Of a DNA stretch of 64,000 nucleotides, positions 29,274-52,649 are shown one piece after another. Below the pieces are notes generated by a model that did not search any database, had not been told where the DNA came from, and was given only the letters and a program-made list of their open reading frames with translations. Position 1 is the stretch's first letter, and each line of letters starts with the position of its first letter. The DNA lies in assembly GCA_046563655.1 (NCBI GenBank), contig JAJCTO010000014.1, positions 248,001 through 312,000 of the forward strand, read 5' to 3'. The position numbers were made by a program, and so were the translations under genes. The DNA comes from Yuukianura sp. NJ FZ-2021. Taxonomy: Eukaryota.

Positions 29274-29560
29274 AGTTAGTGTTAAATGATTACTAAAAGA
29301 ATGTAGGTCAAGCCCCCCTCCCCACAGCCCCATCCCCTGTTCGTTCACCCCGTTCCATTGTTGAAAAGTTTAGCCCTGAGGCAATGAGTGGTGGAATGAA
29401 ATTTAAATTTGCAAATTAAAAAAATATTAATAAACAATAATTTGTTTAATTAATTAGTTATTATTTGTATTTATAATTTTAAATTTAATTTAGTTTTAAA
29501 AGTGTTATACAAAAAAAATAAAAATAAAAATTTTTTTTCGAGATTCGAACTCGCGTCAAC
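29274..29560 (+). repeat. Left terminal inverted repeat of Polinton-2
   Basis: First ~140 bp are roughly 90% identical to the reverse complement of 52505-52649. A degenerate AT-rich match continues to the B box at 29541-29551. Confidence 0.9.
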
Positions 29561-29733
29561 CATTACCTCTCTTGTTTGTTACTGCCGCTCTTCACCGCCA
29601 AGTAATTCTGGCAACACTGACAAATCAAGTAAAAAAAGCAACTACAAGTAAGTGGCAGGCCGCAAATAATATGTTTATTTTTGAAAGTGCAAAATTTTGA
29701 AAAAACAGTGCAAAAAATTAAACTAACTATCGT

Positions 29734-29838
29734 TTCCTAGTTATTTTCGGTTCCAAATTCAATGTTATGCCTTATACTTTATTTGGCTAAGCTCTTCTTT
29801 TGAGCAACATTGAATTTGGAGCCGAAAGTAACTGGAAA
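29734..29838 (+). repeat. Stem-loop (~30-bp arms, ~39-nt loop)
   Basis: TAGTTATTTTCGGTTCCAAATTCAATGTT / AACATTGAATTTGGAGCCGAAAGTAACTG. The mismatches are G-U compatible on the + strand. Confidence 0.8.
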
Positions 29839-29864
29839 AGGAATAACTAACTAATGAACATGGT

Positions 29865-31332
29865 TCATTCCCATTTGCCATTAAACAGATGACGTTTCTT
29901 CAGCACTGGAAACTAATCCCGTAGGATTCAAGTCCAGTGCTGAATACTGCGGATTTGTAACCGCAAATGGGAACGAAACCATGTTCCCGCGAAGAAATGG
30001 ATTGGTGCTGGTGCTGGGTGCTTGGTACCTAGTACCGGTACCTGAAATAAAAACAAAATTTGATTAAAAAAAAAGTTGCAAAAATCTGCAATGCAGTTTT
30101 TTGCAAGCAAACAGAATGACAATGGAGAGAGATGCGGGATGCTTACTTCTACGTCCGCACTCTCCACTCTACTCTCCACTCTCATTCTGTTTACTTGCAA
30201 ATAAAATTGCATTGCAGATTCTGAATAAAGTAGCTTTCGCTACTTAATAAAAACAAAAACAAACCTTGCCTTGGCCGCGAATACTCCGGATGCTGCCGCT
30301 TGGCAGCCAGTCTTGCCGACTGCCGTAACGGCTCCAAGTGCTGCACCATCGTGGGGCTGGTCAGGTTGGGGTATTCACCCCACGGTGGTGGGGCCAAGCC
30401 AGTCGCTGCTACTGCAGGGGTTGTTGGAGCTGGACGGTGGGGCAGCTGGGGTGGGGCAGTGGTGGCACGTCGTGGGGCAGGAGGCGTAGCTGGATGTGGT
30501 GTTGGTGGGCGGGGCCTAAATCCCCGATGTTGGTGGGGCTCTCTCCACTCCCGAACCCACCCAATCAACCACCGAATCCCTGCACCCACGACACATGTTG
30601 TCACTACTGAAACAAAGACAAATCATGAATTAGTGATTTGTATGGAATGTGACAACGAAAAATGAATTTTCTTTAACATGTTGGGTACTACCTCGCTTAT
30701 TGACAAAAATGAAAAAAAAAACATCTTGTACCAATTTCGGTATAAAAAAAAATCGAATGTAAAATTAAAAAATTCAGCTGTATTGTTAAGACTACGATAT
30801 CATGAAATGAAAGAAACTCTTTCTTTTTGCAAAATCGAAAAAACATGAGGTATTACTCAACCTGTTAAAGAAAATCAAAGTCAATAAACCTTGCTAACTC
30901 TGAATCGTTCCAATTTTAGTAAAAAAAAAAGACTTACACGCCAACCATGCTGCCAAAATGATGGCAGCAGTCTCCCACTCTGTTGCAGGGACCCCCTCTC
31001 GTACTTGGTCAGGCTGGGGGCACTTGAGGGTGTCAGGGGGAGCCACGAGAAGATGCAGCGCCCATTGGGGGTATCCCCAATGGGGTGGCATACCCCCACC
31101 CCGTCTTCACGCCTCGACCAAGCGCATCGCTCCCCCAGACACTGAACACAGGGCCAGTTCAGGTCACACTTCGGTGGGTCCCCAAACCCCGTGGCTCCAA
31201 ACAATACCACGATTGCCAAATGGCCCAGCAACATTCGAAAATTTTCCTAAAAATAAATTTTAATTAATAATTTTTTAGTTTTTAGTTTATTTTAGTTTAA
31301 TTGGTTTAATTTTAATTATAAAAACTTACCAT
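29865..31332 (-). CDS. Putative type I membrane protein A: signal peptide, PSI-like Cys domain, TM, Pro-rich tail (multi-exon; one apparent frameshift; 3' exons uncertain)
   Basis: ATG|GTAAGT at 31332. Exon 31246-30938 MENFRMLLGHLAIVVLFGATGFG-DPPKCDLNWPCVQCLGERCAWS...C needs +1 nt in a C/G run near 31070 to continue LLVAPPDTLKCP...TAAIILAAWLA. Exon 30606-30265 LVTTCVVGAGIRWLIGWV...Pro-rich...YPNL. Confidence 0.6.
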
Positions 31333-31633
31333 TTTCTAGGAATCCTCTTCCAGCACAACAGCACAAAACAGAAGCACGAGGAAGTGGGAGTTTTTACAAC
31401 TTTCACTTTCACGTGCTTTTGTTTACAACCGGTTACACATGCATACATGCATTCACCTTTGTACCCACTCACCTGAGATGAGTACATATGGGCAAATTTT
31501 AACTTGAATTCAGTTTTTAAGTTAATTATGCTGTTTTATCTTTTCAACTGTATTAAAAATTTTCAAAAAATAAAAAATAATTTTTTTTAAAGAACGAATT
31601 GTTTCAACAATATGAAAACATAGTATTTGGAAT

Positions 31634-31714
31634 AAAAAAAAAGTTGAACCACTCGAGATTTGAACCCACGGCAACAAAAATTTTCAGAACACGCTCATAC
31701 CACTGAACCACTTG
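31634..31714 (-). promoter_or_regulatory. tRNA-like A box/B box element
   Basis: On the minus strand: TGGTTCAGTGG (31710-31700), then GGTTCAAATCT (31666-31656), then a T9 run. No proper cloverleaf, and an internal T5. Confidence 0.5.
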
Positions 31715-31814
31715 TACTTTGTTAAAAATTCTTGCAAACTGAATACAGTTGAATGGAAATCTATGAATACTTTTACTAGTAAAGCCAAAATTCACAATGC
31801 TACCATAAAACTAT

Positions 31815-33743
31815 TTATTTTAAATCTAAAATTAAATTGAAATTCGTGTTGGTGTTGGCCTCCATGGCTTCTAGGCGCTGTAATTCCTCCTGCCATTGCC
31901 GAATAGCTAGGCTCCTATGTCCCACGACCAGATTTGGACTGAATGGGTGCTGGAACATTAATCCGTCCAGAGTTGTGACACGACCTAAATTTTAAATTTC
32001 ATTATTAAGCTTGAAAAATATGAAAAAAAAATGCAAAAAATTGTTTCTTACTCATTGCTACATAAACCAACTGAGGCGCCTGACTAGTAAACATTGTTGA
32101 TGTGTCACCGGGTGCTGGATTCCCCACCACTACCCGTTTGCAAGTTTTGCCCTATAAAGAAAAAACAAATGATCAAATGTTTTTAGCATAGTCTTGAGGT
32201 AATTCACCTGTGCCTTGTGACATGTCATTCCCCAAGCCAGTTGCAATGGGAATAACTTTCTTTGGTAAGTTCTTCCTGCATACTTGTCATAGTATGGCAT
32301 CACAACCGGAACTATAGGAATGTCTCTCCTGAGTGGATAAGCAACGCCAAAATATGAATCAGGACGCACGAAAATAAAGTTTGGAACTCCATTTTCATCC
32401 ACATCAGTTGAGACTTGAGTCACGGTGACAAGAGCTCCGTTGTAAAGACCTTTTAGAAAAATTCAAAATTAGTCTTTTTAAAATTAGTATGGTTAGGACG
32501 GCATACCTGCAGCGACAAAAAGATTTTTTGTTAACATGCAGCGGGCTCCAACCGCCAGCTTCAATTTGTCGCCAGTCTTTGACTCATCTCGCAAGTCGAT
32601 GGCGTCCACCTCCGTAATGTCTACGCCCAGCTCCGAAATTCGTTTTCTAATTTTTTCACATTTTTAATAGTATGCATAAATTCAGTTTCTTACAAAGACT
32701 TACTCATTGTAACTATTCACGTTGTGATTTTCTGCAAAGAGAACAGGAGCCGAGAGGAAAAGTGAAAGCTCTTCAGCAGTCAGCAGTGAAGAAAGTTTTT
32801 CCAAAGACCTCAATTGCAGCGCTTCAATGTCTTCTTCTTCTAGTTGCCCGCATCTTACGCGCGACAGAATTTCTTTTAACTTGGCTTGAGATTCATCTTG
32901 TCGCATAATTTCTGTCAGTATGACGCATTTGTTAAAATGTGCATACGCCTTGATCCCGTCCAAGCACAAGCCTTCGGCGTGCATTGACTTGTAATATAAG
33001 GGTCTATCTGCCACTGGACTTAACCTTTAACATCAAACATCACTATTATACGGTTTATACATTTAAAAGTGTAACTTACTGTGCCAGATCACCCATGGCC
33101 AACACCGTAAGACCTCCAAACGGATCTTGTGTCCTGAAAATTGCGCGGAGTCTTCGCTCCATGTATCCTAGGAGACCAACCCCAAGCATAAAAACTTCGT
33201 CAATTATTAACAGCCGTACTCCTTTCAGTCTCTCCCGTGGAAAGTCCACGTATTTTTCCGGGTCGTGTTTTCGATGGCCTAAACTCAATGAGAGACCACT
33301 GTGAACAGTTATTCCTCCCGCGTTAAATGCTGCTGCGCCCGTAAATGCAAAAACACGGAAACGAATCTTTTTCTTTTCGAGATAGCCTCTTAAATAGTGT
33401 ATAATGAAGCTTTTTCCTGAAATTTTGAAAAAAAAAAAGTTAATTTCAAATGAAATTTCTAAAGAAATTTTGACTTGCCTGTCCCAGCAGCGCCGTGACA
33501 CAAAATGAATTCCTGGTTACGAGCTTCGAGTGCTTCTGTGACCAGTTTCGCTGTTTGACGCTGCTTGGAATTGAGCTGCTCGAGTACCACTTCCGGAAAT
33601 ACTCTGTTCACCGGCTGTGTTTTGCTGTACTCGATAAATGTCATTGGGTTGCTAGGTACCAACTTTGGAACAACTTTTCCTGTAGTTTCGTCTTTCTGCA
33701 ATTTTCTTTTGAGTGAACTTTTATCCATCCTTACTGTCTGCAA
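31815..33743 (-). CDS. PIF1-family SF1B DNA helicase, 7 exons
   Basis: Introns 33478-33417 (GC-AG), 33079-33025, 32703-32647, 32506-32450, 32207-32152 and 32051-31985 give one open frame with GAAGTGKS, FTGAAAFNAGGITVHS, LLIIDEVFM, FGGLTVLAMGDLAQLSPV, LTEIMRQ, LAVGARCMLTKNL..AGLYNGA, FPLQLAWGMTCHKAQGKT, YVAMSRVTTLDGL. Confidence 0.93.
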
Positions 33744-34135
33744 CGCTTGATTGATGATACCGGTAGACGTGAGGAGTAGAAAACGTTAAAGTTTTTCAAA
33801 ATTTCTTCTTGAGTGTGAGCAGCGTCTAATCCTGTGACTCTTCCAATTTTGAATCGGAACCCGCCAAATGTAAATGGTTCTTTGCTGGACCAGCGACGAA
33901 TGCTACAAAGAATCTCCACGATATCTAAAGGCTTTGAAGGCTTGGCCGAGGGGCAGACGTGCTGCGCAAATCCGTCCCATACAATGTCACAGTTTGTGCA
34001 CTGCGAGTAGTCTTCCCGAACAATTCTCTCAATATCTCGGCAGCGCGATTTAGTAAGCCTGTCTTTGAGTACCTTGATTCTGATTGGACTAAATATTTTT
34101 ACACATCTGCAGCAGTGATGTGTACTTGAATACAT
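33731..34135 (-). CDS. Hypothetical Cys/His-rich protein
   Basis: 134-aa ORF with HHCCRC and CTNC...HVC, overlapping the helicase start. No family recognised. Confidence 0.5.
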   Translation of the reverse strand: MYSSTHHCCRCVKIFSPIRIKVLKDRLTKSRCRDIERIVREDYSQCTNCDIVWDGFAQHVCPSAKPSKPLDIVEILCSIRRWSSKEPFTFGGFRFKIGRVTGLDAAHTQEEILKNFNVFYSSRLPVSSIKRCRQ

Positions 34136-34816: not shown

Positions 34817-35717
34817 ATGGGAAGCAATAGCGCTGGTGAGTATTTACTTATTGATACCAAAAGTTTCTTTTTGGATTTTATTCTTTTAAAATACTTTCAG
34901 AGGTTCCATCGCAAAAGGTAGGAGCGTTTCGGAGACGCTTGGATTTTGATGACGCAGATGAAGCTACACCGGCCGTCAGGAGTCGACGGGCCATTGACTT
35001 GTTGACCGGCGTCGCCAATCCAGGCCAGGACGTTGTGGAGGGAAGACCGCCGAACACTCCATTTATTTTCACTGAGGCATTCTCTGGGTTACCGATGAGT
35101 TATGTCAAAAAGGCAAAGCAACTGGAGCTTGGGCCAAAGAATGCGCAAGCGTTCTTTGGTGAATTGGGGCTCGTGGAAAAATTTGGGACTTCAACAACGT
35201 TTTACGCTCGGCTTGGATTTGACCCATTTTCTCAAAGTAAGAAAAAGAATGATTAGTTTCGGCTCATATTTTTAACTCTTCGTCTTTTCTTTTTCTTGCA
35301 GCGATGAAAATTTACATCCAAAAGCTAAACTCGAATGCGAGCCCAACGATCCTTGGAATTTTGTTTCGAGAAGTTGGTGTGATCCTGGATCAAATAAAAT
35401 CGACCTTGGCTGAGATTGACGAGTCTGTGAAGGCAGGAGCTCCCTTATTCAAGTACGAGCCGGGAACTCTGATTGAGCCCAAAGAGTTATCATTCTGGAC
35501 GCACGACGACGCTTGGTATAGCGAAACGATGAGATTTAGAATGCGCTTTGTCAACGTCCGGAGGGATAGATATTTTTTTTACCTCAATTCTCAAAGTGAT
35601 AACTCCAAATTTGACGGCTATTTTGGGCCAAAGTTAACGTTTTGTCGGGGAGACATTGATGGGTTTGTGAAGACAATGCAAAATATCATTGCTAAGGTTG
35701 ACCCTGAAGATTTGTAA
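34817..35717 (+). CDS. Hypothetical protein, 3 exons (34817-34835, 34901-35236, 35302-35717); possibly tandem PC4/PUR-like ssDNA-binding repeats
   Basis: GTGAGT..TTTCAG and GTAAGA..TTGCAG introns join two listed ORFs in frame. AATAAA follows the stop. Fold guess rests only on a repeated strands-then-helix pattern. Confidence 0.65.
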
Positions 35718-35879
35718 AGAAAGAAAAGTTTTCAATAAATGTATGGCTATCAGCCACTTTTTTCGTCTTCAAGGTTTAAGATGCATTTTTTTTTTGCCTC
35801 GTCGTCTACAGTATTTAAAGTCTGTAGTTTCCGAAGTTTTGCATTAGATCATTTTTCACTTCCAAAGAAAAAAATAGAA

Positions 35880-36185
35880 ATGGGATCCACGTTATCCAGA
35901 CCCTGCGAGCACGAGGATTGGGACACTTGTTTCTGTCCTCAGGAGGAAATATTCAACGACCAACGGACGGGAGGAGACTGGAGGCGACGATTGACACTGG
36001 AGGCCTTCTTCGTTTACGACCGCCTCAAGGCTACTTGGACTAATTTTTGGACGCGGCGTCGTAACCGCCCAATATACTGGAAGCCAGAAGAACCTGATGT
36101 AATGTCCCAATTTCTACACTACCGAAGCATGCACCGTCATGCCCAAATGCGGCTGCTCGAATTGAGTAAGGTTTTCCAAGCCTAA
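35880..36185 (+). CDS. Small hypothetical protein with N-myristoylation-like start (MGSTLS)
   Basis: ATG at 35880 in AAAATGG context. MGxxxS motif, CEHEDWDTCFC, Arg-rich. Confidence 0.45.
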   Translation: MGSTLSRPCEHEDWDTCFCPQEEIFNDQRTGGDWRRRLTLEAFFVYDRLKATWTNFWTRRRNRPIYWKPEEPDVMSQFLHYRSMHRHAQMRLLELSKVFQA

Positions 36186-36217
36186 TATGAGCCCATATAG
36201 CCAATTATATTGTCTTA

Positions 36218-36985: not shown

Positions 36986-37242
36986 TATTTTCAGTTGATT
37001 TTTTTTTACTTTCAGTTCTCTTTAATGCGGCCGACGAAGATCTCCAGCCATACCGTTATAATTATTGACCCTAGGACTATGCCAAATTTCATAATTTTGA
37101 GATTTGAAATAAACAAAAATGAAAGTATGGATTTCTTGTTTAAGCCTTCCTTCAATCCTTGGAAAAATCAATGTTTTTTTTGCAGCGAGTCAAAAAAAAA
37201 ATTAAATTGAAGAAAAGGAGAACATGGATAGTTTATTATTCA

Positions 37243-37907
37243 TCAAATTTCAGACATATCTGCTCCCAATTTCTTTTCTTCGTTCATTTCATACGTCTCA
37301 TACACAGTATGTGGTCCACAATATCCTCCAGGGAAGCGGAAAATTTCGGTTAGAGCTAGGACTTCAGTGTGGGGTCCATCTTCTCCTTCAACTGGCCACT
37401 TTGTATAATCCATTGAGTGCTTGTCTCGAATCACGAGGCATGTCGTACCTTTGTCATGATAAAGTTTGATTTTTGGCAGGTCGCTGACCCCCCCATCCCC
37501 CTGAAGAAAGAGTTGATACAGCTTCCCAATAAGTCTGGGAACCATTTCAAAATCCACCATGGCTGCCGTACCGTGTTGTTCGATCCGGAGTACTGGTGGA
37601 GTTGGACGATACGTTATTAGAGAGCAATCCAAAGTTTCCGGATGATTGATACACACTTTTGTCACTACTTTGTATTCCCCGCTCGCCTCATCAGGACAAG
37701 AGACGGATCTATACCAAGTAGATATCTTTGAGCTTCCCTCCATTGTTTTCCTAAGACTTTTAACTCTGACTTGAGTTGTGGGTGAGTAAAGTGAGACTGA
37801 GCGCCAGAGAACACAGTCAATTTATACCCCTTTCTCTCGGTGTAAACGACTCGTGTGAACGGAGAGATGGTATGGAGCATTGAGCTCCCCATGCCGTAGG
37901 AAGTCAT
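37243..37907 (-). CDS. Hypothetical protein(s): two overlapping ORFs (37907-37665, 37743-37243), possibly one frameshifted gene
   Basis: Protein-like composition in successive frames, divergent from the TATA at ~37957. No family recognised. Confidence 0.45.
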
Positions 37908-38018: not shown

Positions 38019-38482
38019 ATGCCGACGAAAAACTGTGCACCTCTGGCGGGTAGAATTTTAGAAATTGTAAGTTTTGAACTCTGACCTTAAAATTCTCTTT
38101 GTTCGTAGATTGTCCAAACAGACAGGAAAAGCCATTGGCTGAACTTTTGGACGAACTTGCCGAAGTGGATCCTGTCGTACGTCAGTTTGGCAGTGCCGTG
38201 CTGAAGCACCGCTGCTGGAACCGTAAGGGTCACCGTGACTGTTACGTCTACGATGCAGAACTTAACAAGGACAAGACAATGAATGAACTGGCAGCGGACC
38301 ATTCGGCCTATGTCCGGGAAGGGGATTTGGAAGAGTTCATGAAGGACATGAAGGCTCACTTGGTTCTTTCTGAACCTTGTATCTTGGGCTGTGGACGAAC
38401 CGGATCACAGTGTTTTGAAAATCCGTGCTTCTTGGTAAAGTCAATGGACTGGAACGACGAAGACGCTATGGATACCAACTGA
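38019..38482 (+). CDS. Hypothetical Cys/His-rich protein, 2 exons (38019-38049, 38109-38482)
   Basis: TATATAAA at ~37957. AAAATG start. 59-bp GTAGAA...CGTAG intron in frame with the listed ORF. Confidence 0.55.
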
Positions 38483-38614: not shown

Positions 38615-39769
38615 ATGTCTGAAAGACAAATAAAGTCAGCCTATTTGAATAAAAAAGCAGTTGGAAGCTTTTCAGGTTTTCCGTCATTCTTAAAGTCGTC
38701 AGGTTTTTTAGACAAAGAGAAGGTCAAGCAAGCTTTGTCCGGAGTACCTGCATATTCTCTGCACAGGCCGCAAAGAAAGCCAAGGACCAGGCCAGTATTA
38801 ACGTTTTTTCCTATATGACGTTCGGAGTGGATCTTTTACAGTTGGATAAAAAGTCTGCCAAAAAAGAAAAGATTGGCTTCATTCTCATCTGCATGGACTT
38901 GTTTAGCCGCTTTGTGTGGACAGAGTTCTGTGTCAACAAGACAGCACGGGTCGTTCTAGAAGCCATAAAGAAAGTTTTCAAAAAAGCTGGGGTAAATGTC
39001 TTCTTTTCTCTCTCAAGTCCATTTAAAGTTTATCATTTTTTTTTTCTCAGCATCTGCCGCATTTCTTGGCTTCTGATTTTGGAAAAGAATTCAAGAATAA
39101 AAGCCTTTTGAAATATTTGGAAGCCAATGACATTCACAGTTATTCGCCGAGAACTGCGAGAAAAGTTTCACAAGTAGAACGTGTAATTCAAACGTTAAGA
39201 AGAAACTTGACCCGGGCTCAATTTGCCAATCCAAAGTCTTCTATGAAAACTCTATGGCCGGACATTGTTTCAAATTACAATAAAACGGTGCATTCAACCC
39301 TGAAAATGACCCCCACGGAGGCTATTGACCCCAAAAACAAAACTACAGTTTTTATAAACGTCTACGACAAACTAATTAATTCCAAACCCGAGAAGCCAAA
39401 ATTCAAGGTAACAGTTAAACATTCCCTTTGTCCTATAAAAACATGTCTCTTCTTTCCAGGTGAATCAGCTCGTGAGGGTCGCAAAAAAACGTCTAACTTT
39501 TGAAAAAGCTTCAACGTCACAATCGTACTCTACGGACATCTTTCGGTAAAAAACGAATTTGCCCAATTTTGGGATGTCAACAAAGTGTCCTTTTTTATAG
39601 GATTCGAAAGGCAATCAGCGCAGTGCCTCCATTCTACTACCTTGAGACGCTGAAAAAGGAGGAAATTAAAGGTAATCATTTTAGACGGATTTTGGAAGTT
39701 GACAACGATACATCTAATTCTTTTTTAGGAAGTTTCTTGAACGAAGATTTGACCCCAGTGACTGCATAA
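38615..39769 (+). CDS. DDE integrase (Polinton-2), 5 exons, one apparent 1-nt frameshift near 38805-38815
   Basis: Introns 38992-39050, 39408-39459, 39546-39600 and 39672-39728 restore FGVDLL...CMDLFSRF...LASDFGKEF...VERVIQTL...YNKTVHSTLKMTP...KFK/VNQLVRVAKKRLTFEK...IF/RI...IK/GSFLNEDL. Confidence 0.9.
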
Positions 39770-39771
39770 AA

Positions 39772-40881
39772 ATGTACCCGTTTTCACGCTTCGTGACCCT
39801 AGGTTCCACTTCATTTCCCTCGTTCTTCCCTTCAAACAATACAAGTTCTTTTCGAAATAGGCTTTTGGACAGTATTACTTTGCAAAAGAATCTCCCGCTT
39901 GAAGTTGCAGTGTGTAATTTGTGGTACCCCGCAACGCCAGACACTGGAAAATATACGATTTTTGGCCATGAATCCGACGACAATGTCGTTTCCGTGGTTC
40001 AACGCTTTGAATCGAGCATGGAAGTGTTTCGAGCCGAAAGTGAAAGTTATATTGAAACAATGAACAAATGCAATACGAATTTTGCAATATTCAACAACAA
40101 GCTGACATTCCTGTTGGAAGTACAAGATGGAAGGGACTTTTTAATATTTCGCAACAATGACACTGGCTACGACGTGAAAATTCCAGAAGTCTATGCGTAT
40201 GCTCTCGGATTTACAAAAAATGTGTTTGGCCAAGGTGAAACCGATGCCCCATTGTCTCCAAACCAAACTGCTTTGGACGCCATCGACATTTCAGAGCCGC
40301 TCAAGTTCACTGTTTTTCGTGAAGTCAGTTCTACCGTAAAGGTCAATGAACCCAATGTCAAGACTGTCGAAGGCCTAGTCAGTGAAATCAATGCGGCTTT
40401 GAAACAGTTGGAAATTTCATTTTCCTACGACGGAAGCAAACTCAGCGTCAACGGCGTCTCCGGAAGAGGCTATAGTGTTCGTCTCTCGGAATTTCTTGAA
40501 AAAACGTTTGGCCTCAAAACTCCATGTTGGTTTAGCTTCAACAACACTTCATCCCCGACAATCGCCAACATTGACCTGGATATACATCACAACAATGTGA
40601 TTGTGCTCTGCGATGCTGTTAAACCGCAGGAATTCAAATCCAAGGCAGTCCGGCACATGAGCATTTTGCCAAGGCGAGATTTGAAAAAAGAGGAAGGAGT
40701 TAGAATTGTACACGAAACCCCACGGCCACTGCTATACTTTCCTGTTGACATGGACCGGAAGGAAATTAATGAAATTGGAATCGATCTCGTTTTTGAAAAT
40801 TTGGAACCAATCCCTCCAGCTAACGATTTATATTCCGCGGTGTACTTCACTTTCAAAATAAAACTTTATAAATATAAATAA
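39772..40881 (+). CDS. Minor capsid/penton-like protein (PZ), divergent, intronless
   Basis: FVTLGSTSFPSFFPSNNTSSFRNRL...LEVAVCNLWYP and IVLCDAVKPQ...PLLYFPV...INEIGIDL align by eye to Polinton-1 PZ. Follows the integrase as in element 1. Confidence 0.85.
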   Translation: MYPFSRFVTLGSTSFPSFFPSNNTSSFRNRLLDSITLQKNLPLEVAVCNLWYPATPDTGKYTIFGHESDDNVVSVVQRFESSMEVFRAESESYIETMNKCNTNFAIFNNKLTFLLEVQDGRDFLIFRNNDTGYDVKIPEVYAYALGFTKNVFGQGETDAPLSPNQTALDAIDISEPLKFTVFREVSSTVKVNEPNVKTVEGLVSEINAALKQLEISFSYDGSKLSVNGVSGRGYSVRLSEFLEKTFGLKTPCWFSFNNTSSPTIANIDLDIHHNNVIVLCDAVKPQEFKSKAVRHMSILPRRDLKKEEGVRIVHETPRPLLYFPVDMDRKEINEIGIDLVFENLEPIPPANDLYSAVYFTFKIKLYKYK

Positions 40882-40932
40882 TCTGCTGCATTAGTTAGTC
40901 GTCATTTGACTTTCGTTGGAGCCAGAGGCCAC

Positions 40933-41289
40933 ATGCTTGAAGTTGTGTGTGAAGGTGAAGGTTGTAAGCTTTTGAAAAGAATGGACGGAGAAAAGACTCG
41001 CCAGGTTGGGTACGGGGCGTTGACCCCTGTAGTTTTACCAAATTCAATTCCATTCCAGAGTGTGAAAAAGGCTAAAAAGGGTAAAAAGAACGGTGCTTCA
41101 GAAATGACAGGAGAAGGACGAAAAAAATCCAAAGGCCGTAAAAAGACTGGAGCTGCTAAAAGAAAAGGAAAAGCACCCCAAAAGAAAGTGTCCGCGGTGG
41201 AAACTTCTGCTTCTAAAAAGAAAACTCCTCAAAAGAAAAAGATCGGCTGTGGACCAACGAAACAAGCCAAGCCAAAATCGTTTAAATAG
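40933..41289 (+). CDS. Lys-rich basic core-like protein
   Basis: QVGYG, MTGEG and IGCG motifs, very Lys-rich. Lies immediately upstream of the MCP like PX in element 1. Confidence 0.65.
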   Translation: MLEVVCEGEGCKLLKRMDGEKTRQVGYGALTPVVLPNSIPFQSVKKAKKGKKNGASEMTGEGRKKSKGRKKTGAAKRKGKAPQKKVSAVETSASKKKTPQKKKIGCGPTKQAKPKSFK

Positions 41290-41352: not shown

Positions 41353-42653
41353 ATGGCTTCAGTAAACACGCTTCCGGGTACAAAGCCCAACTACGTTTCC
41401 CAACTCGATCTATTTTCAGTTCCCCCGACTGACATTAGTGTGCAACAAACAGAGTTCATCAAGATTATTCCAGTGAATACTGTAAAAGAAAATCCTCAAA
41501 TCACGTTCAACATTGGGCAGTTTCAATTCCCGCCCAACGTTTACTTGGATTTCTCATCATCATACCTCTACCTTAAATGTAAAGTGCTCACTGCAAGTGG
41601 AGAAACGCTTCCGGACAATGCCGACGTTGCTATTAGCAACATGATGTTCTACACAATCTTTGACTCTTGCATTGTCACCGTCGGCGGCGTTCAAATGAGT
41701 GAGTACCCACAGAGTTACAGTTACAGAGGAATTCTGTCGCATCTCCTGGGCTACAGTCAAGAGCTCAAAACGAGCCTCCTGTCATCAATTGCCTACTACC
41801 CAGATTCCAAACAGGATGTCTTTGACGCAACAAACACTGGATATACGAAAAGAAAAGCCATTTGTGCCGGGTCAAAGACCTTTGATTTATTTGGAAAAAT
41901 CTCATGTTCATTGTGTGAACTCCAACGATGGATTCCTTCGGGACTAAAAATTGAACTTACGCTGACTAAAAGCTCAGCCCTCTTCTGCTTGGACACGCCC
42001 ACCGACACAAAGTATACGTATTCCATTGAAGATGCCGTCTTTCATCTCAAGGCACATACAATTAGCCCTCGAATCTACTCTAATCATCAGCAGCTATTCA
42101 ACCATGGAAAAAAAGCAATCTACAGTTACCGAGAAATTGAAATTGAAAGAAACACAATCGCTTCCGGAACTGTCAGCTTCACCTCGGACCGGCTTTTTCT
42201 TCGGAGGATGCCTACGATTGTTGCAATTGCGTTTGTGAAATAAAATCGTTTCGGGGAAGCTACAAGAATAGTGCCCAGAATTTTGCCGACTTTGGCGTAA
42301 CGTCAGTCAGCGTCAGAACAGAAGAATTTGTTCCATTTTACAGAGAACTCGTCTGTAATTACGCTGCAAACCTGTACATGGAACCATTCGTGGCTCTTTT
42401 TGATACACTCGGTTCTTTTGGAAACGGAATTTCCCGCGAGAATTTCAAACTTGGCAACGCCGTCTACCTTTTCCAACTTTCTGAAGCTGCAGTCTCGAAC
42501 AATGACCTCCTTCCTGCGCGTGAAGGGCCCGTCCGTGTAACAGCAGTCTTTGCTGAAGCCCTGAACGAGCCAGTCGAGTTGATTGTGCTGGGAACTTTTC
42601 AAAACGTTTTAACAATTGACAAAAACAGAAACGCCCAAGTTCTTAAAACTTGA
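41353..42653 (+). CDS. Major capsid protein (PY), one 1-nt frameshift at ~42240
   Basis: SQLDLFSVPPT...YLDFSSSYL...YSYRG...MPTIVAIAFVK, then in the next frame SFRGSYKNSAQNF...LTIDKNR. Adding one base gives 433 aa, the same length as the element-1 MCP. Confidence 0.9.
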
Positions 42654-42655
42654 GG

Positions 42656-43242
42656 ATGAACGGGACGGAACTGGAGGAAGCAATGGCGTGTATAAAAGAG
42701 TGCTCTGACTCAAAAATTCGAACTTTTGTTACTTCTAATGATGGAATTAGTCTTCTAAACCCACGCCCCCCATTCTGCTGTATACAAAATACCGGATTAA
42801 CTTCTTCTCCAGGTAAATACTCTAGGTAAAAAAAATATGTAAACGCAAGAGATTTATTTTTTGTTTTAATTTAGGAATTCATTGGGTTCTCTGGGCGCAC
42901 TTGGAGCAAGGCCAGTTGGTTTTTTTTGACAGTTTTGGGAAATTGCCTAGCGATTACAACCTATCTCTTCCTTACGGCCCGTGCACTATAATTTCAGAAT
43001 GGAACACTAAAAAACTACAAAGGGATGACAGTGCAACGTGCGGCATGTTCTGCTTAAAAGTCTTTCAAGAGTTGAGCAGCGGAAAGGATTTGTGTACCTC
43101 CTTAAGTATATTTAGTCCTAAAAACTTAAACAAAAACGAAAAAATTGTATCCGATTTTTATAGCAGTTTAAGAATCTGTACGAACAGGGGTCAATCAGGG
43201 TCATCCCAGACATGCTATTCTTATTGCGATTGGCTAAAATAA
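42656..43242 (+). CDS. Adenain-like cysteine protease, 2 exons (42656-42812, 42875-43242)
   Basis: MNGTELEEAM...IQNTGLTSSP/GIHWV...FFDSFG...LQRDDSATCGMFC. 62-bp GTAAAT...TTTAG intron. Confidence 0.9.
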
Positions 43243-43334
43243 CTTTTTACTGTGAATAAAATATAAATATCCTACAATTTCTTGACGATTGTTTCAGTAT
43301 TCATTTCACTCATTTTGAGTCAACAAGTAGTGTA

Positions 43335-44001
43335 ATGGCTCTCTGCAGTTTCCTCTTGTTGTGTTTACTAATCTCAGCGTCATCAGGCAAGTAACCAATT
43401 TCCTTCTCCATGGTCATTTTTTTGTGATTCTTTTCTTTTTGGAAGCAGGAGAGCAAAAAACTCTCCAAGAGCGCTGTAGGAACTGCATCTCAGGCGGTCA
43501 TGTATTTATCAAAGGATGGCATTTCAATTCGATTCAAAACTTTTTTTGCACAAATGACTTGACCCGGAACCTCCCGGGAACACTCATTATGGGCGCAACT
43601 AACGTCACAGCCAATTGCGATTCCCACCAACAAGATACGGATGGAACCGTTTATGGAACGTTGTTTGCTGATAATTTCAGCAATGGGACGGCGCTAAAAG
43701 ACATTTCGAATTTATTGAGAGCGATGACCGGCTGCAAGAGGCAACAAAAGTATGAACCCGCCTCCCAACTTCCAGTATTACAAGCTATTCTGGGTATGCT
43801 ACACCTTATAGTCTGGTCGCCTATATGCATTAATTGTTTTATTTATCCACAGCCTTGTCCTGCGTGACTTTTGCCGCCGCCGTCGCAAACGTCTTGGGGT
43901 GGAGTTTGGGAGGTCAGTGCCATGGTAGCCAATCCCGCGGGACATTCGGCAGTGTATTTAACGTCGCTCTCCGTCGATCCCCCCGTCAGTCCGAAGTCTG
44001 A
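43335..44001 (+). CDS. Putative type I membrane glycoprotein B, 3 exons (43335-43386, 43449-43793, 43853-44001)
   Basis: Signal peptide MALCSFLLLCLLISASS, GC-AG intron (GCAAGT), ectodomain CRNC...C...C with NVT/NFS/NGT sequons, TM LPVLQAILALSCVTFAAAVANVLGW, tail ending SEV. Confidence 0.65.
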
Positions 44002-44058
44002 GCCTGGGAATAGCTTTAGAAAATTTTTTCAGTTTCGTTTTTTTTAAGTTTGAATAAA

Positions 44059-47000
44059 ATGGGTTTTCTGAATAAACGGGCAGCAGAGGTAAAAAAAATT
44101 CTAAGCCGTCTTATTATTGTTGTTTCACAAAAATTTTTATTTATAGTTTAGTTGCGGTTATCAAAGTGCTACGTTGCACTGCCCTTTCAAGTGCTCGACC
44201 TACAAGGCCATGGCCATCCATGTGGAAACTGTAAGACATTACTTTTAGTATGCGGAAAGATGTGAAACTTTCACTTTTGATGCAGGTACATAGCTGTAAT
44301 TCTTGTGGAGGGTACTTTGATGAGGCTAGTCTTCACCGTCCAATCTGCCCTCAGAGAGGCATGGGCCGTACAGCGAACAATGACCTCGCTACGGTGGACA
44401 TCCGCCCTTTCAAAGAAATCCGCCATGCTCTCAAGGGGACTTTGAAGTTGTTTTCTGCACCCGTTGAGCCACCCACCGAATGTCAAGTACTCTCCGTTTT
44501 TGAAAACCTCGACTTTCCTATTAGAAAGTTACTGAAATCCGTGATTGGGCAGTACAGCGGAGTCAAAGTCAACTTTACTTTAATTGCTGACATGATTGAG
44601 GTCACACACAATGTCATTCACCTCGGAGACGCCATCGGAGCTCCTTTCATGCCTCTTTCTCATCCCGATTTCATTTCAAGGGTGGTTACAAACTCTTGCG
44701 TATACATCATTAACGCCCTCAACTTATACCTAGAAAACGGAAGCAATTGGCAAATTCTACGGCTACGTTCTCTCAACATTGGTATTGGTCAGTGGAGTCC
44801 AATTGTTCGAGGGCGGGGCTACATTCCGATTCCAAAGGAATTGGCTCGGAGGCGCGGACTGCTGTCGATAAATACCAATTCCAACTGTTTTCAATTGAGC
44901 GTACTATGTGCACTATACGAAGATGAAATTTTGGAGTTGGGAAGAATGAAGCGGCACTGTCTTGGGCTCAAGGATCACCAAAATTCAAAAGTTGAGAGAG
45001 CAATTTTAGAAAAAACAGCAAGTTATGAAGCCTTTTTAGAGAGATTGGATCTGAGCTTTCTCCCTCGCTCTGACGTTTCTCTTTTGGACATTGACTTGGT
45101 CGAAGAGAAATTCCCAGAACTTAGCATCACCGTATACGGAAACCAGGGATCGGACATTGTTCTGTGGCGTGCACCACAAACTGAGAGAGCGAATCACGTC
45201 AATCTCCTACTAATCAAGCACCCAGAACGAGAAGAACATCACTTTGTTTGCATTCGGGACATTTCGGCACTTCTCGGAAAAATGGGTAATTACAGACACC
45301 AATTTTGTCCTGTCTGTCAAAAACGTTTTGACTCTAGGACTTGGTCTTCCGTAAACCATACATGTGGTGAAAACTCTGTAAAAGTAAAAGTACCTACGAA
45401 TGATATTGTCAAATTTCGCAAGTTTGATGCCCTCCTAAAAGCTCCTTACATTTTTTTCTACAAATTCTTCTACATCTCTGTCCAAACTCCGATGACCATT
45501 GGACAAGAATGTATCAGTGTTACTGAAAAAGCTCCAATTGCGTTCAGTCTAGTGAGTATATGTGAAACAGGACACGTAGACCGCCACTCTTACATCGGAA
45601 AAGACTGTGTGGACGTTTTCTTTAAAACTGCAATGGAAATGGCGAAGATGAAGCTGGACGAAATTAAATTTACAAACAAGATGCTTCAGATGACAGAAGA
45701 ACAGGAAAGGCTTTTTCTGCAAGCGACACATTGCGAAATTTGTGGAAAACAATTCAACGACGTTTCTGTGCTTAAGGCTTACCACCATAACCATTTCACA
45801 GGAGAGAAGATGCAGACATGTTGCACAAACTGCAACTTGGAAATCAAACCAAAGAACCGTATTACAGCGATTGCATTTTGTGAAAAAAATGAGTTTAATT
45901 TTTTGCTAAAATGCGTGAAAGATGAGCACGGAATTGCCACGCCAATTCGTAGAAAGGAAGGCAATACAATAGGCATGGACTTGAGAAAAACCATTTGTAA
46001 ACAAAAGTATGACCTTTACTTTGGGGTCAAATTTGTGGATTTTCAAAATTTTCGTCCAGACTCTCCTCTCTCAGATCTTGTACAGGAGCTGAAGATGTCA
46101 GGCATTGGATTTCCAATCTTTCAAAAAATTTTTGGCCAACAACTTTCTCCCGACGCTACACTAACTGCCGCAGACGACATTCTCCCCGAATTTTCATCGG
46201 TTGATAATTTTTTCGAAAACCAATCCGTGCCGTTCGTGAGTCTAGAAGGTTCGAGTAAATTCCAACTTCCTGACTCTTGGAAACAACTCTCCTTGGAAGC
46301 CATAGTTCGGCATAAACTTAACAGTGTCGCTGCTCTAACGGCAGACGTTTTCCAAGCGATTCGAAACGAATATTGGAAAGAGTTTCATTTGGATCTGGCT
46401 TCCTTTTGGAGCATTTCTTCATTTTCAAGAGAAGCCGCATTCCTAATGGAAAAGTGTGTAATTCAAGCCGTCACGGACGAAGAAATTTCAAAACTAATTA
46501 CACGAGGAATTATTGGCCCTGTGATTCAAGTTACAAAGTTGAAGTCTATTGCCAACAATGAAGAGCTCTCCAACTATGACCATACCCTTCCACAAAAAAT
46601 AATTTTTTATGCTGACATTAACTCCTGTTACAGCAAGTGCTTCTTGGGTAATTTACCGTGCGGAGACTACAAAAAATTGAGAGCAGAGGAGATCATGAAG
46701 TTTGATTTCAACAAACCAGATTTTGACGAAGGCTGGGGTTACCTCTTTGAAGTCGACCTTGAATATCAAAGTGAAGCAGTGAAAGAGTTCCTTTCAGACT
46801 TTCCCTTCCCGCAACAGAGACTCAAGGTTTCTGCTCAAGAGCTTTCTGCATTCCAGCAGGAGAGTTTGGGAGAAAAAACAAACATTGAACAAGAGCGAGT
46901 GCTTCTGACCCTCTACAAAAAAATACGACAAGTCTACTACGGAAAGTACCTCAAGTTCATGATTGACCATGGCGCAAAAGCAACAAAGTACTATTCAGTA

Positions 47001-47909
47001 GTTCGATTTCGGGAGTCTCCGATTTTTGCAAATTTTGCAGCTAGCAATGTTATAGCTAGAAACCAAGCAAAGTATCCCCTTCAAAAACAACTTCGGAAGC
47101 TTTTAAACAACTCGCTGTATGGACAGATGCTGAAAAACAATGCAGATTACATACGTTCAAAGACCATCAGATCTTCGGTGGAAGCGAAAGCAGAACTTGC
47201 GAAAGCAACTTTCAAGTCGTTTGAGATTTTGGACGAAGACACTGCGCTTTTTGACTTTTCAAAAGGAGAAATCACCGATTACAATCTACGCATGATTGGA
47301 CTTGCAATACTTTCAAATGCAAAAATTATGCTCTACTCACACTACTATGACGGACTAAAACGTGAGTTTGGGGACAGGTGCCATCATGTGATGACTCATA
47401 CTGACAGCATAGTTGCTGAAATCCACTGTAGCAGAGCCGAATGCGTAGCTGGTCTGAAACGACTTTCAAATCGCTTCGACTTTTCTAATCTACTGCCGGC
47501 ATCCGAACTCTATGATGCATCTCGGGCAGGAATACCTGGACTCTTGAAGATTCAAGCTGAAGGAATCAAAGAATTTTACTCTACTTCCTGTTCCCAATAT
47601 TCCATGGAAATTGATTCAGCACATGGACAATCCAACATTCTGAAAGCGGGCGGAATTCCGAAAACAGAGGCCAAGGATCTGAGGCACGCTGATTTTAAGC
47701 GCGTAGTTGAGCATGGAGAGGCTTTGAAGAAAGTAAAAATTTCTACGGTGAAAATTTTACATGACCAAATGTTAGTTGTCACAAGTAACCGCTCATCCCT
47801 CACCTCCAGCATCAACGCATCAAGATTTTTTGTGTCAAACACAATTTCCCTTCCCTTTGGAGACAAGCGTATTGACACCATAGTTGATTATGATTTGAAA
47901 AATAATTAG
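44059..47909 (+). CDS. Protein-primed family B DNA polymerase, 3 exons (44059-44088, 44147-44230, 44286-47909)
   Basis: Spliced N-terminal C2H2 finger (CGYQSATLHC...HVETVH). ENGSNW...GRGYIPIP; NCF...HFVCIRDIS; EndoVII/HNH-like CEIC...HHNHFTG...CN; YADINSCY; FEVDLEY; KLLNNSLYG; HTDS; C-terminal SLPFG. Confidence 0.93.
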
Positions 47910-48140: not shown

Positions 48141-48762
48141 ATGCGTAAGTTTTGAGAAAAACTTTTTAACCTTTAGTCAATTTGTATTTAAATCTTGATT
48201 TCTATTTTTTTTCTCAGCCGCTTGTCATGCATTATGGAGGTGCGTCAAATGTGTCATGATGGGATGTGCGTTCTTCGAATTTAATCGGACTGGACAGGAG
48301 AGGACATTTTGTGGATTGGAAGGAACTGCAAGGGGATACACCTTTAATGTAAACCCTCCCAACTGGGAAGCTTGTCGGAATATCCCGACGACGACGACCA
48401 CTGAGCCACCAACGACGGAACCACCAACCACGGAACCACCAACCACGGAGCCACCAATGACGGACCCACCGGCCACGCTGACCCCGGATGTCCCTGAACC
48501 TTCAATTGAAGCTGCAACGGAATTGAATATTGTCTTGGTCATCATTACTGGTAAGCTATAACTCGTAAATTATGAATATTGCATCAGAATTCTAATTTAA
48601 TAAATCTGTTATTAAGTGGGCTTGCTCCTGGCCATTGCAGTCTATATGGTCACTCGCAACGTGAGGCGCCGTCGACGACCGAGGCCCCTTAGTGACCAAC
48701 TCCAGCGGGGAGAAGCTGCTCTTCAGTTGGAAGCCGTCACCGCCCGTGAAAGCTCCCTTTAG
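48141..48762 (+). CDS. Putative single-pass membrane protein C: PSI-like Cys domain, TEPPT mucin stalk, TM, polybasic tail; 3 exons (48141-48144, 48218-48550, 48617-48762)
   Basis: ACHALWRCVKCVMMGCAFF...FC...AC, (TTEPP)n repeats, IVLVIIT/VGLLLAIAVYMV TM, RRRRRPR, ends ESSL. Canonical GTAAG donors. No signal peptide found. Confidence 0.7.
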
Positions 48763-48785
48763 AAGTTAAACAAATTTTGGAATTT

Positions 48786-49705: not shown

Positions 49706-49804
49706 CATGATAAAAGTTTTAAAATAACAAATTTTAAAATCATTTTTGTCATTAAATAGAATGCTTAAAATAATAATTATATTTAATTCCAAAATTTTGA
49801 CAAG

Positions 49805-50185: not shown

Positions 50186-50222
50186 CTAAAAAAAATCACA
50201 AAATTCAAAATGAGGGTTTACG

Positions 50223-50990
50223 TTAAAAAAAAAACGTTGACATAACCACAATTTTTTTTTTGAAGCCAAGTTGCATAAACTGAAGTTGTTTCACTGGAGC
50301 TTCAACGGCCGATTGCGCCAGAGTTGTTCCATACTCTCTCCGACGTAGCATGTTGAACTTTGTTCTTAGTTCCGGTGGCATCTCCAAAGGAATCTTAATC
50401 CATCTGAATCTAAAGAAAACGAGAGCCAAAATTAAAACTGAAAAAAATTTTAAATTAATCACTCACGGATAGTAGTCGACTTCTTTTCCCCCGTAACCTA
50501 CGAACATCTCTTCGCCGTATTGTTCTTTGATTTTTGCTTCAGTTTGTTTGTCTTCTTTTTCTCGATACCCGCATTCGTAGTTCCGGCGCGTGGCAAACAC
50601 GGCGGTAATGTTGATGATGTGATACTTGTCAAGTTTGTGGCGTTGTTGTCTTAGAAGCGTCCAGTACTCGTTTGTCTTACCACTTGGACCAGGCGTTTCT
50701 TCCGCAGGAGCCGGGCGCAAAGTATATTCGCTTGGCTAAATTTTCAAAATTTTCGGTTGAATTTGTAATTGAAAACAAAATTGAGACAAAAAAAACTTAC
50801 CGATTCGACCCTGACCCTTTCACCGTCAAAGTCTGGGTCACGAACAGGGTCATCGAAAACATTCTGAAAGTGAGACAGTTATTTGTAATGCTTTTCAGTA
50901 CAAGTAATCGCATAAAATTATAAGGGAACTTACCAGCATTTTGATGCGTTGTATTTTTTTTTGGACGACGAAGTCTTGATTTTTTGAAAA
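50223..50990 (-). CDS. Multi-exon hypothetical protein, weak chromodomain-like pattern
   Basis: GTAAGT/GTGAGT donors near 50930, 50800 and 50465 join DDPVRDPDF.../PSEYTLRP...YHIINITAV...EEMFVGYGG..YY/PFRWIKIPLEMPPELRTKF. Start is uncertain. Confidence 0.45.
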
Positions 50991-51148
50991 ACAACAGAGC
51001 TGAATGTTTTTAACACTGATTTGTTTTTGTTTTTTTGCAACAGCTGTGGTAATGTTTTTGAATTGTTGAGAAACAAAAAATGAAAAGAAACAGAAATGAA
51101 GAAGTCACCCGTTCTTTGTAAAATCCAACTCAAGCGCCATCCCAATTC

Positions 51149-52201
51149 TACGGAAGCGTAAAAGTGCCAACTCAGTACTCGGTGCTCGGTACTTGATGCC
51201 CACTGCGCGGTTCCCAGTACTCGGTTCCCGGTTCCCAGTACTCGGTGCGCGGTTCCCAGTACTCAGTGCGCCGTCCTGATTTCCCAAGATTCATTTCCCG
51301 AGATTCGTTTCTCGAGATTCATTTCGCGAGATTCATTTCCCAAGATTCATTTCCCGAGATTCATTTCTCGAGATTCATTTCCCAAGATTCACTTCCCGAG
51401 ATTCATTTCTCGAGATTAATTATCTCAAGATTCATTTCTCAAGAATACTCAACACTTTACTCACAAGCATGGCAGAAAATTCCAAAAAGTGAAATTAATC
51501 TAATGAATAAATTTTGAAAACAATGATTTCCAAAATATTACCAAAAGAAATTCAAGTTAAACAACTTCAATTTTAAATTGCAGTTCAAAAAAGCACAAAA
51601 CGTTTAGTGAGTCACGCGGGTATTGTTAAATTTAAAGTGTACAATATTCCTCAACTCTTAACAAATGTGAAATTTAACATGCCGGCATGTTAAATGGCCG
51701 CATCTGCCGAACTTGGTTTTGCCGTAACTTGTATCCCTTGCCGGCAAGGGATAATGACGTTTCTTGGAATTGGTGTAGAACTCGAATTTGGACTCGTTTT
51801 GTTAACCTAATTTATGTGTTAGGTAACAAAACGGAATCTCGTGAAATATATCTCGAGAAATGAATCTCGAGAAACGAATCTCGGGAAATGAATCTTGGGA
51901 AATGAATCTCGAGAAATGAATCTCAAGAAACGAATCTCGGGAAATGAATCTTGGGAAATGAATCTCGAGAAATGAATCTCAAGAAACGAATCTCGGGAAA
52001 TTAATCTTGGGAAATGAATCTCGAGAAACGAATCTCGGGAAATGAATCTTGGGAAATCAGGACCGCGCACTGAGTACTGGGAACCGCGCACCGAGTACTG
52101 GGAAGCGGGTACCGAGTAATGGGAACCGCGCAGTTAAACTCCAATGTATTTCTTATGGAGGAGGTAATCGGGAAGCGAGTTGGCCCTTTTAAGCTTCCGT
52201 A
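51149..52201. mobile_element. Nested non-autonomous DNA transposon (IS3EU-like termini) with foldback repeat arrays
   Basis: 25-bp TIR TACGGAAGC(G/T)TAAAAG(T/G)GCCAACTC, 6-bp TSD CAATTC (51143-51148, 52202-52207). Empty site visible in the paralogous copy near 49385. Inverted arrays of 21-bp and 14-bp units. Confidence 0.85.
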
Positions 52202-52354
52202 CAATTCTTTTTGTTGAAATCTTACAACAATCAAAAATGTAAACTCAACTTACAGTGTGAAGTTCATGGGTGCTTTTTTTTTGAAGATTTACAACACTGC
52301 CATAATGATGAGGTGGTGCAGAGATACAGCTCAGAAAATAGGGAGAAAAAAATA

Positions 52355-52649
52355 GACGCCAGTTCGAAACCAGATTTTATTTTTTTTTTTATTTGTTTTT
52401 TCATTTTTTTTTTAAAATTAAACTTGGATAATTTAAAAATAATAAATACAAATTAATAATTAATCAATTAACTAAATTTTGTTTATAAAAATTTATAAAA
52501 TTAAACTTGTAAATTTAAATTTCATTCCACCACTCATTGCCTCAGGGCTAAAAAATTCTCAACAATAGACCGGGGTGAATGGACAGGGGATGGGGCTGTG
52601 GGGAGGGGGGCTTGACCTACATTCTTCTAGTAATCATTTAACACTAACT
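52355..52649 (-). repeat. Right terminal inverted repeat of Polinton-2
   Basis: Reverse complement of 29274-29560. Ends ACACTAACT. Confidence 0.9.

Follow-up and report, generated by a model that had tools for sequence, protein, structure and literature searches.

Polintons, or Mavericks, are commonly treated as elements without introns. Intact vertebrate Mavericks are described as possessing intronless open reading frames (ORFs), a description reported to be in line with Kapitonov and Jurka 2006, and "intact" in that work means uninterrupted ORFs (PMC8097293). Endogenous viral elements have been gene-called with prokaryotic gene finders on the assumption that introns are lacking (PMC10120064), and introns are not mentioned in the capsid paper of Krupovic et al. 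(PMC4028283). One report, on the introner transposons of dinoflagellates, places spliceosomal introns in Polinton-like proviruses (PMC12166617). No description of an intron-rich Polinton lineage was found in the full-text literature searched, a scope outside which subscription journals fall. Here we present an element at positions 29274-52649 of a 64,000-nucleotide stretch of DNA (the window) from Yuukianura sp. NJ FZ-2021 (assembly GCA_046563655.1, contig JAJCTO010000014.1, positions 248,001 to 312,000, forward strand). It is very probably a Polinton/Maverick of a divergent and thinly sampled lineage, the genes of which would be spliced by the host and which carries at least 21 short, old introns that have been subject to gain or loss. 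The element is assigned to this type because it has terminal inverted repeats (TIRs), a 6-bp target-site duplication (TSD), AG..CT ends, a protein-primed DNA polymerase B (pPolB), and an integrase, a major capsid protein (MCP) and a protease that are homologous to those of a second Polinton in the window.

The element is 23,376 bp long with ends AG...CT, and the limits proposed for it in an earlier, sequence-only reading of this DNA proved exact to the base. They are defined by the following features.

29268..29273, no strand: left TSD copy, CATTTA, compared with the uninterrupted site in the satellite consensus
29274..29513, plus strand: left TIR, beginning AG, matched to the right end
52410..52649, minus strand: right TIR, terminating in CT, matched to the left end
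52650..52655, no strand: right TSD copy, CATTTA, from comparison of the flanks

The TIRs are about 240 bp long; 59 of the 60 outermost bases match, and identity over the first 250 aligned columns is 84%. The element interrupts an array of a 245-bp satellite (8077-29274 and 52657-64000). CATTTA occurs once in the satellite consensus unit, which thus supplies the empty target site. Scans of the element for tRNAs and against Rfam gave no matches.

By manual count 21 introns were placed in frame, seven in a gene for a PIF1-like helicase, three in the integrase gene, two in pPolB, one in the protease gene and eight in accessory genes (gA 2, orfN 1, sec1 1, mem2 1, orfR 3). The boundaries are GT-AG in 19 cases and GC-AG in two. 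The donor consensus is G/GTAAGT, and the acceptor consists of a T-rich tract followed by YAG. The introns are 52-83 nt long, the median being 59, and 19 of them lie within the 52-67 nt that the sequence-only reading had given for most of them. The phases are split 8, 8 and 5. The GC content is 0.271 within the introns, compared with 0.451 in the 60+60 flanking exon bases, and it is lower in every one of the 21 (Wilcoxon p = 9.5e-7). If the introns were retained, the reading frame would be lost in all 21 cases, and 16 contain an in-frame stop. Since none of the 21 can be read through, the mRNAs would have to be produced in the nucleus and undergo splicing. When 22 intervals were examined on the opposite strand, none could be fitted as GT..AG. 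These were the 21 introns plus a candidate at 48145-48217, which had passed the signal tests and was later dropped, as it offered no in-frame join to a long ORF; the statistics were then recomputed on the 21. A raw scan for GT-AG pairs that bridge ORFs returned 689 candidates on one strand and 725 on the other, so that such pairs are common by chance and bridging alone is uninformative. An exon-chaining gene finder recovered the helicase gene exactly but fused all of the plus-strand genes into one chain, and it was abandoned for counting. Thirteen of the 21 introns lie in genes of a known family, and for 14 there is support from homology or from the relative introduced below. The density in this lineage is 1-4 introns per kb of coding sequence.

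The sequence-only reading had put the total at 25 or more. This figure is plausible, and the candidates that would make up the difference are unverified: the left arm holds two long ones (331 and 157 nt), and region 35715-37240 a single weak one of 99 nt, none of which we counted. That reading had assigned 12 or more introns to accessory genes. Introns are indeed present in several such genes, where eight could be placed, but the seven or more ascribed to membrane genes could not be reproduced in region 35715-37240.

To place these introns in an evolutionary context we may use a relative. A HMMER search with helicase exon 3 against 1.84 billion representatives found two close fragments, P0038 (69% identity) and P0039 (56%). 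P0038 is encoded by L001, a 5,302-bp metagenome contig and the sole relative of which the DNA was compared; scans of viral contigs with pPolB, with MCP and with an alignment of gA yielded none further. The helicase gene of the element and its introns are as follows.

31815..34135, minus strand: PIF1-like SF1 helicase (SF1, superfamily 1), 8 exons, 627 aa when spliced; Pfam PIF1 match on exon 3, E = 5e-11
33734-33652, minus strand: PIF1 intron 1 (83 nt); L001 has a site within a few residues
33478-33417, minus strand: PIF1 intron 2 (62 nt, GC-AG), inside the Walker A loop; compared with L001 and P0039
33079-33025, minus strand: PIF1 intron 3 (55 nt); site present in L001, with a GA donor there
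32703-32647, minus strand: PIF1 intron 4 (57 nt); common to L001
32506-32450, minus strand: PIF1 intron 5 (57 nt); common to L001
32207-32152, minus strand: PIF1 intron 6 (56 nt); common to L001
32051-31985, minus strand: PIF1 intron 7 (67 nt); L001 is continuous there

Removal of these seven introns, where six had been noticed previously, leaves a single frame, open over 627 codons, in which the Walker A loop and helicase motifs III, V and VI, including the H-K-x-Q-G and Y-V-A-x-S-R boxes, are restored across the junctions. P0039 and its cluster mate P0188 run uninterrupted across the site of the Walker A intron and end at the intron-3 site. P0038 consists of exon 3, 22 additional residues placed precisely where intron 3 lies, and exon 4, with the end of which it stops. 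The points at which the ORF fragments P0039, P0042 and P0048 end hint at more sites that are polymorphic for introns. We note that both GC-AG introns of the element (33478-33417 and 43387-43448) have the donor GCAAGT, and that the helicase site in L001 has GT as its donor.

In L001, gA lies on one strand and PIF1, integrase and a homologue of X387 (an ORF of the element described below) on the other. The PIF1 model is 35-54% identical to L001, depending on the segment, and the proteins of the element are overall about 50% identical to those of L001. The L001 PIF1 and integrase genes contain 11 introns of 57-72 nt, ten GT-AG and one GA-AG, with a GC content of 0.399 compared with 0.473 for the flanking sequence; nine of the 11 have less GC than their flanks. 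For these two genes, eight intron sites are common to the window and L001, and in seven of these both residue and phase agree. The seven are PIF1 introns 2, 4, 5 and 6, integrase introns 1 and 3, and the site of PIF1 intron 3; the eighth, PIF1 intron 1, agrees to within a few residues. The common introns themselves align at the level of shuffled sequence (0.51-0.65 versus 0.51-0.60), and their exon flanks are 0.53-0.76 identical. Two introns are private to the window and precisely absent from L001 (PIF1 intron 7 and integrase intron 2), and three integrase introns of 63, 61 and 64 nt are private to L001, the window reading straight through. At every private site, the unbroken sequence of one element equals the predicted spliced junction of the other. 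Judged from the two sequences, this is how spliceosomal introns, as opposed to random insertions, behave. We observed in addition that L001 intron 3 (2294-2359, 66 nt) has a GA donor and contains no in-frame stop, and that the public ORF call, P0038, reads through it.

Eight common, two window-private and three L001-private sites imply that gain or loss went on after the two elements split. Since L001 is equally intron-dense, the trait must be old and common within the lineage rather than peculiar to this copy. Further, the second Polinton of the window, which resides in the same genome, has uninterrupted integrase, protease, MCP and X253 ORFs and one demonstrated intron, in its ATPase gene, so that a high density is a property of the lineage and not of the host. 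As to whether a similar density is routine in related Polintons, a question raised by the sequence-only reading, L001 with its 11 introns is as dense. The same reading spoke of lineage-specific intron gain. The density does belong to the lineage and sites have been gained or lost, but the direction of change is something that we only infer. Its central contention, that the interruptions are introns of the spliceosomal type located within core genes, is borne out by the signals, by the reading frames and by the conservation of sites in the relative.

The remaining core genes and the ORFs that lie between them are listed here.

38615..39769, plus strand: rve-type integrase; introns 38992-39050 (59 nt), 39408-39459 (52 nt) and 39546-39600 (55 nt)
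39772..40881, plus strand: X387, the intronless 387-aa ORF (369 aa between these limits); homologue of neighbor ORF 3772-3029 and of L001 4842-5300
40882..41289, plus strand: Lys-rich basic ORF, intronless; a basic ORF of the neighbor occupies the equivalent place before MCP
41353..42653, plus strand: MCP, intronless; BLASTP match to the neighbor MCP
42656..43242, plus strand: adenain-like cysteine protease; intron 42813-42874 (62 nt)
44059..47909, plus strand: pPolB; introns 44089-44146 (58 nt) and 44231-44285 (55 nt)

The integrase exon 39051-39407 aligns to the rve integrase of the neighbor with E = 7e-8, and BLASTP against the neighbor proteins also matches an integrase exon (2e-5). The alignments cover residues 128-243 and 274-302 of that intronless protein. 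A Pfam rve match on the exon 38800-38991 is weak (E = 0.018) and falls under the cut-off. Four integrase introns had been reported earlier. Three could be placed, together with one frame break, and an upstream ORF, orfN, is a separate gene rather than an integrase exon, because the integrases of L001 and of the neighbor start at the equivalent of position 38615. The protease matches that of the neighbor (BLASTP E = 2e-7), the splice junction restores the P-G-x-H-W motif of the intronless neighbor protein, and the spliced model contains the His and Cys motifs; the only Pfam match, to Peptidase_C48, is sub-threshold at E = 0.0099. In pPolB, both introns are in the N-terminal zinc-finger part and are followed by 3.6 kb without introns. 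The open frame (44235-47906, 1224 codons) has 36 homologues, the best with E = 7e-68 at about 24% identity, and those that are annotated belong to scallop, parasitoid wasps, a beetle, ants and Hydra. Aligned with the homologues, pPolB keeps polymerase motifs A, B and C, and the second junction rebuilds a C2H2-like finger like those in their N-termini; no Pfam family matched pPolB at E <= 0.01. The single protease intron and the two pPolB introns are as first described. As a separate matter, the acidic residues that all seven aligned homologues have in exonuclease motifs I and II are missing from pPolB, which is possibly proofreading-dead.

A priori, the interruptions might be nothing more than decay, the element being a dead copy with small insertions, stops and frameshifts. 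The integrase and MCP genes do contain true frame breaks, and the authors who described vertebrate Mavericks caution that GeneWise reports insertions as "introns" (PMC8097293). The integrase is broken at the T6 run 38805-38810, where L001 is continuous. MCP is split between two frames at 42238-42245, within A runs. BLASTP against the neighbor MCP matches two consecutive frames with abutting coordinates (E = 2e-36 and 1.7e-10), and this alignment leaves no space for an intron. These breaks, which were absent from the sequence-only reading, may be real lesions or assembly indels at homopolymer runs. In either case they leave unsupported, for this copy, the suggestion made there that the element has stayed mobile, the basis of which is the clean TSD and the TIRs. 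However, decay would not be expected to produce GT/GC..AG consensus boundaries, narrow sizes and a sharp drop in GC in 21 of 21 intervals, nor to leave open a 3.7-kb pPolB frame and a spliced 627-aa PIF1, nor to recur at eight sites, seven of them matching in residue and phase, in L001, the proteins of which are about 50% identical. We therefore regard decay as largely refuted and hardly credible as an account of the interruptions.

A second alternative is that the introns were planted by a family of introner-type transposons, as in the eupolintoviral proviruses of dinoflagellates. Introners are reported in 25% of dinoflagellate viral elements, mostly Maverick/Polinton-like ones (PMC12166617), and the private introns of the window and of L001 demonstrate turnover. 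Nevertheless, an all-against-all comparison of the 22 candidates revealed only A/T-run matches of <=16 nt, and no intron had a second copy in the 64-kb window. The introns are only 52-83 nt long and lack terminal repeats. As no intron is a copy of another, it is unlikely that introners spread in a recent burst; very old introners, it should be said, would have lost their similarity, so that an ancient origin of this sort is conceivable. Overall, we consider an introner origin very unlikely.

X387, the basic ORF and MCP, which form a 2.8-kb capsid block, are intronless, as is the 3.6-kb pPolB body. Given that the modelled coding sequence amounts to 12.3 kb and contains 16 introns, the probability of finding none by chance is P = 0.027 for the capsid block and P = 0.009 for the pPolB body, values that were calculated post hoc. 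The absence of introns from MCP and the basic protein had been reported correctly. The broader claim that capsid genes are spared is true as a description, X387 being a putative capsid protein at most, but the statistics are weak and post hoc, and sparing of the block beyond chance is suggestive only. The identity of X387 to its homologues in L001 and in the neighbor is 51% in one comparison and 27% in the other (BLASTP E = 5e-5 with the neighbor protein). Beyond these two, no homologue was found in a set of 5.8 billion proteins, nor any Pfam family. An AF2 (AlphaFold2) model from a 3-row alignment had a pLDDT of 32 and gave no usable fold, and the Protein Atlas leads to viral clusters only. 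As a lead, X387 is possibly a minor capsid protein.

This distribution invites a third alternative, namely that the intron-bearing genes are host-derived cargo that was captured with its introns and that the truly viral genes are intronless. Nematode Mavericks are described as containing intronless core genes and cargo genes with introns (10.1101/2022.07.12.499685). In our element, PIF1 and the secreted and membrane genes lie outside the classical core, and the capsid block and pPolB body are free of introns. Against this stand the introns in core genes (integrase 3, protease 1, pPolB 2) and the preservation in L001 of the PIF1-integrase-X387 linkage. A mosaic origin of the intronless block was also rejected: GC (0.40-0.51) and GC at third codon positions (GC3, 0.36-0.56) are alike across genes and give no sign of a recent foreign module. 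Capture of cargo is thus unlikely as the source of these introns.

We return to the interpretation that we prefer, of an old, host-spliced set of introns in a Polinton lineage. Several points count against it. For eight of the 21 introns, ab initio signals are the only basis, and the exon-chaining finder predicts too many introns. L001 intron 3 may be a decaying splice site or a translated insert. The comparison of intron size and signals extends to a single intron, that of the neighboring Polinton. The frame breaks in integrase and MCP mean that this copy may be dead. Finally, no packaging ATPase was found, so the element departs from the textbook Polinton and possibly does not form virions. 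With respect to this last point, which was not made in the sequence-only reading, a search for an FtsK/A32-type ATPase found as the only Walker A loop in six frames that of PIF1, and the neighbor ATPase, used as a tblastn query against the element, gave a best E of 1.1. An ATPase could still be encoded in small exons with a split P-loop.

According to this interpretation, transcription of the genes would take place in the host nucleus, and their transcripts would need processing by the host spliceosome before translation. The element would copy itself as DNA, so that its introns would be inherited by each copy; such DNA replication and integration follow from protein-primed replication together with rve integration. 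The introns would be old, as a relative at about 50% protein identity has them at the same residues and phases, and those of one element that are precisely absent from the other would have been gained or lost over the history of the lineage. Actual splicing, the direction of change and any benefit to the element we infer from sequence. It is possible that the introns persist by neutral accumulation in a nuclear resident, through intron-dependent expression, or as an escape from surveillance of intronless transcripts, a principle that has been demonstrated for the human HUSH complex (PMC8770142). Host mimicry, evasion of silencing and a program of early spliced and late unspliced transcripts, all of which were suggested by the sequence-only reading, are conjecture. 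A more general proposition, that a virus-like transposon lineage has adopted the gene architecture of its host, with introns long kept in core genes and still gained or lost, we put forward tentatively, as possible rather than probable.

The other genes of the element are listed below.

30042..31246, minus strand: putative left-arm membrane gene (ab initio), with a signal-peptide-like start, a Cys-rich part, a hydrophobic helix and a Pro-rich tail
30937-30607 (331 nt) and 30198-30042 (157 nt, GC-AG), minus strand: candidate introns of the left-arm membrane gene, ab initio and unverified
34817..35717, plus strand: gA, a conserved ORFan of 256 aa, divergently oriented from PIF1; introns 34836-34900 (65 nt) and 35237-35301 (65 nt)
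37246..37743, minus strand: single-exon ORF of about 166 aa, of no known family (Pfam without a match)
38019..38482, plus strand: orfN, 134 aa, a separate gene upstream of integrase; intron 38067-38125 (59 nt)
43330..43867, plus strand: sec1 (ab initio), with a signal-peptide exon and an exon rich in N-glycosylation sites; GC-AG intron 43387-43448 (62 nt)
48199..48762, plus strand: mem2, with a Thr/Pro-repeat stalk, a transmembrane helix and a basic tail; intron 48551-48616 (66 nt), inside the helix
49705..50939, minus strand: orfR, a right-arm gene (ab initio); introns 50933-50864 (70 nt), 50800-50736 (65 nt) and 50466-50410 (57 nt)

The best-conserved protein of the lineage is gA, the C-terminal domain of which is 73% identical to the L001 copy (53-541). 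It starts with Met-Gly, its sole relative among 5.8 billion proteins is that copy, and its second intron site is common to L001. The sec1 intron has in-frame alternatives of 59 and 65 nt. Two further candidate introns in orfR are unverified, and this gene possibly continues into a C2H2 zinc-finger part at 50185-49808. In the left-arm membrane gene two long frames overlap on the minus strand (31246-30884 and 31106-30897); the first encodes the signal peptide and Cys-rich part and the other leads into the transmembrane helix, an arrangement that may represent a third frame break. Just inside the right end, a 14-nt unit forms two arrays in inverted orientation (51225-51438 and 51792-52127). Upstream of the right-arm genes there are pairs of direct repeats, 49317-49391/51075-51149 (92%) and 49438-49587/52255-52404 (73%). 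These repeats may be duplicated promoter or binding modules.

The second Polinton, which belongs to another family, occupies approximately positions 1-8076 and abuts the same satellite. Its genes comprise the end of pPolB, an inhibitor of apoptosis (IAP), an ATPase, a 253-aa ORF (X253), integrase, protease, MCP and a basic protein. The integrase is a 334-aa uninterrupted ORF with an rve domain and the protease an uninterrupted ORF of 192 aa; the MCP and X253 ORFs are also uninterrupted. The match of the neighbor MCP itself to a double-jelly-roll (DJR)-like Pfam family is under the cut-off (E = 0.0055). The ATPase, with its Walker A near 2960 on the minus strand, has a 77-nt intron (2679-2603) with signals like those of our element. 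The earlier statements that the integrase and protease of this neighbor lack introns and that its ATPase has one were thus accurate. In its IAP-like gene, a BIR domain (1066-578) and a RING-like piece (585-343) are in different frames, likely owing to another intron or a frameshift. The satellite array also holds a fragment of a Ty3/gypsy pol gene (RNase H and integrase zinc-binding domain) at 22394-23230 on the minus strand.

These results have implications for the way in which such elements are sought. Pipelines that rely on prokaryotic gene finders or on uninterrupted ORFs would miss an intron-rich lineage or score it as degraded, so that the diversity of Polintons may be underestimated. 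Obligatory splicing would make expression dependent on the nucleus and the spliceosome of the host. Introns that are present in one relative and precisely absent from another document unambiguous gain or loss within a non-cellular replicon, and such cases are rare and useful for the study of intron origins. If the interpretation is correct, this lineage would be a natural, datable system for intron gain and a test case for the idea that mobile DNA is protected by its introns when the host surveys transcripts that lack them.

How, then, does the element compare with systems already described? It resembles Polintons/Mavericks (Kapitonov and Jurka 2006; Pritham et al. 2007) and the animal elements of the adintovirus type in its size of about 23 kb, its TIRs, 6-bp TSD and AG...CT ends, its pPolB, rve integrase and adenain-like protease, and an MCP homologous to that of the typical Polinton in the window. 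It differs from them in the introns that interrupt its core genes, in having a PIF1-like helicase and in that a packaging ATPase was not found. With the dinoflagellate introner proviruses it has in common spliceosomal introns in Polinton-like integrated viruses and variation in their presence and absence. Those introns are recognizable copies of transposons, whereas the introns of our element have no mutual similarity, and many of their sites are common to relatives at about 50% protein identity. The kind of host differs as well, the homologues of the element's pPolB being found in animals. Nematode Mavericks are likewise virus-like transposons with spliced genes beside viral ones. In them, however, splicing is confined to captured host genes, whereas in our element integrase, protease and pPolB would be spliced too. 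Adenoviruses, finally, belong to the same virus realm and are nuclear double-stranded DNA replicons with a pPolB, adenain and a double-jelly-roll capsid that depend on host splicing. Their splicing mostly joins leaders to unbroken coding bodies, whereas in our element short introns lie inside the coding sequence itself, as they do in cellular genes.

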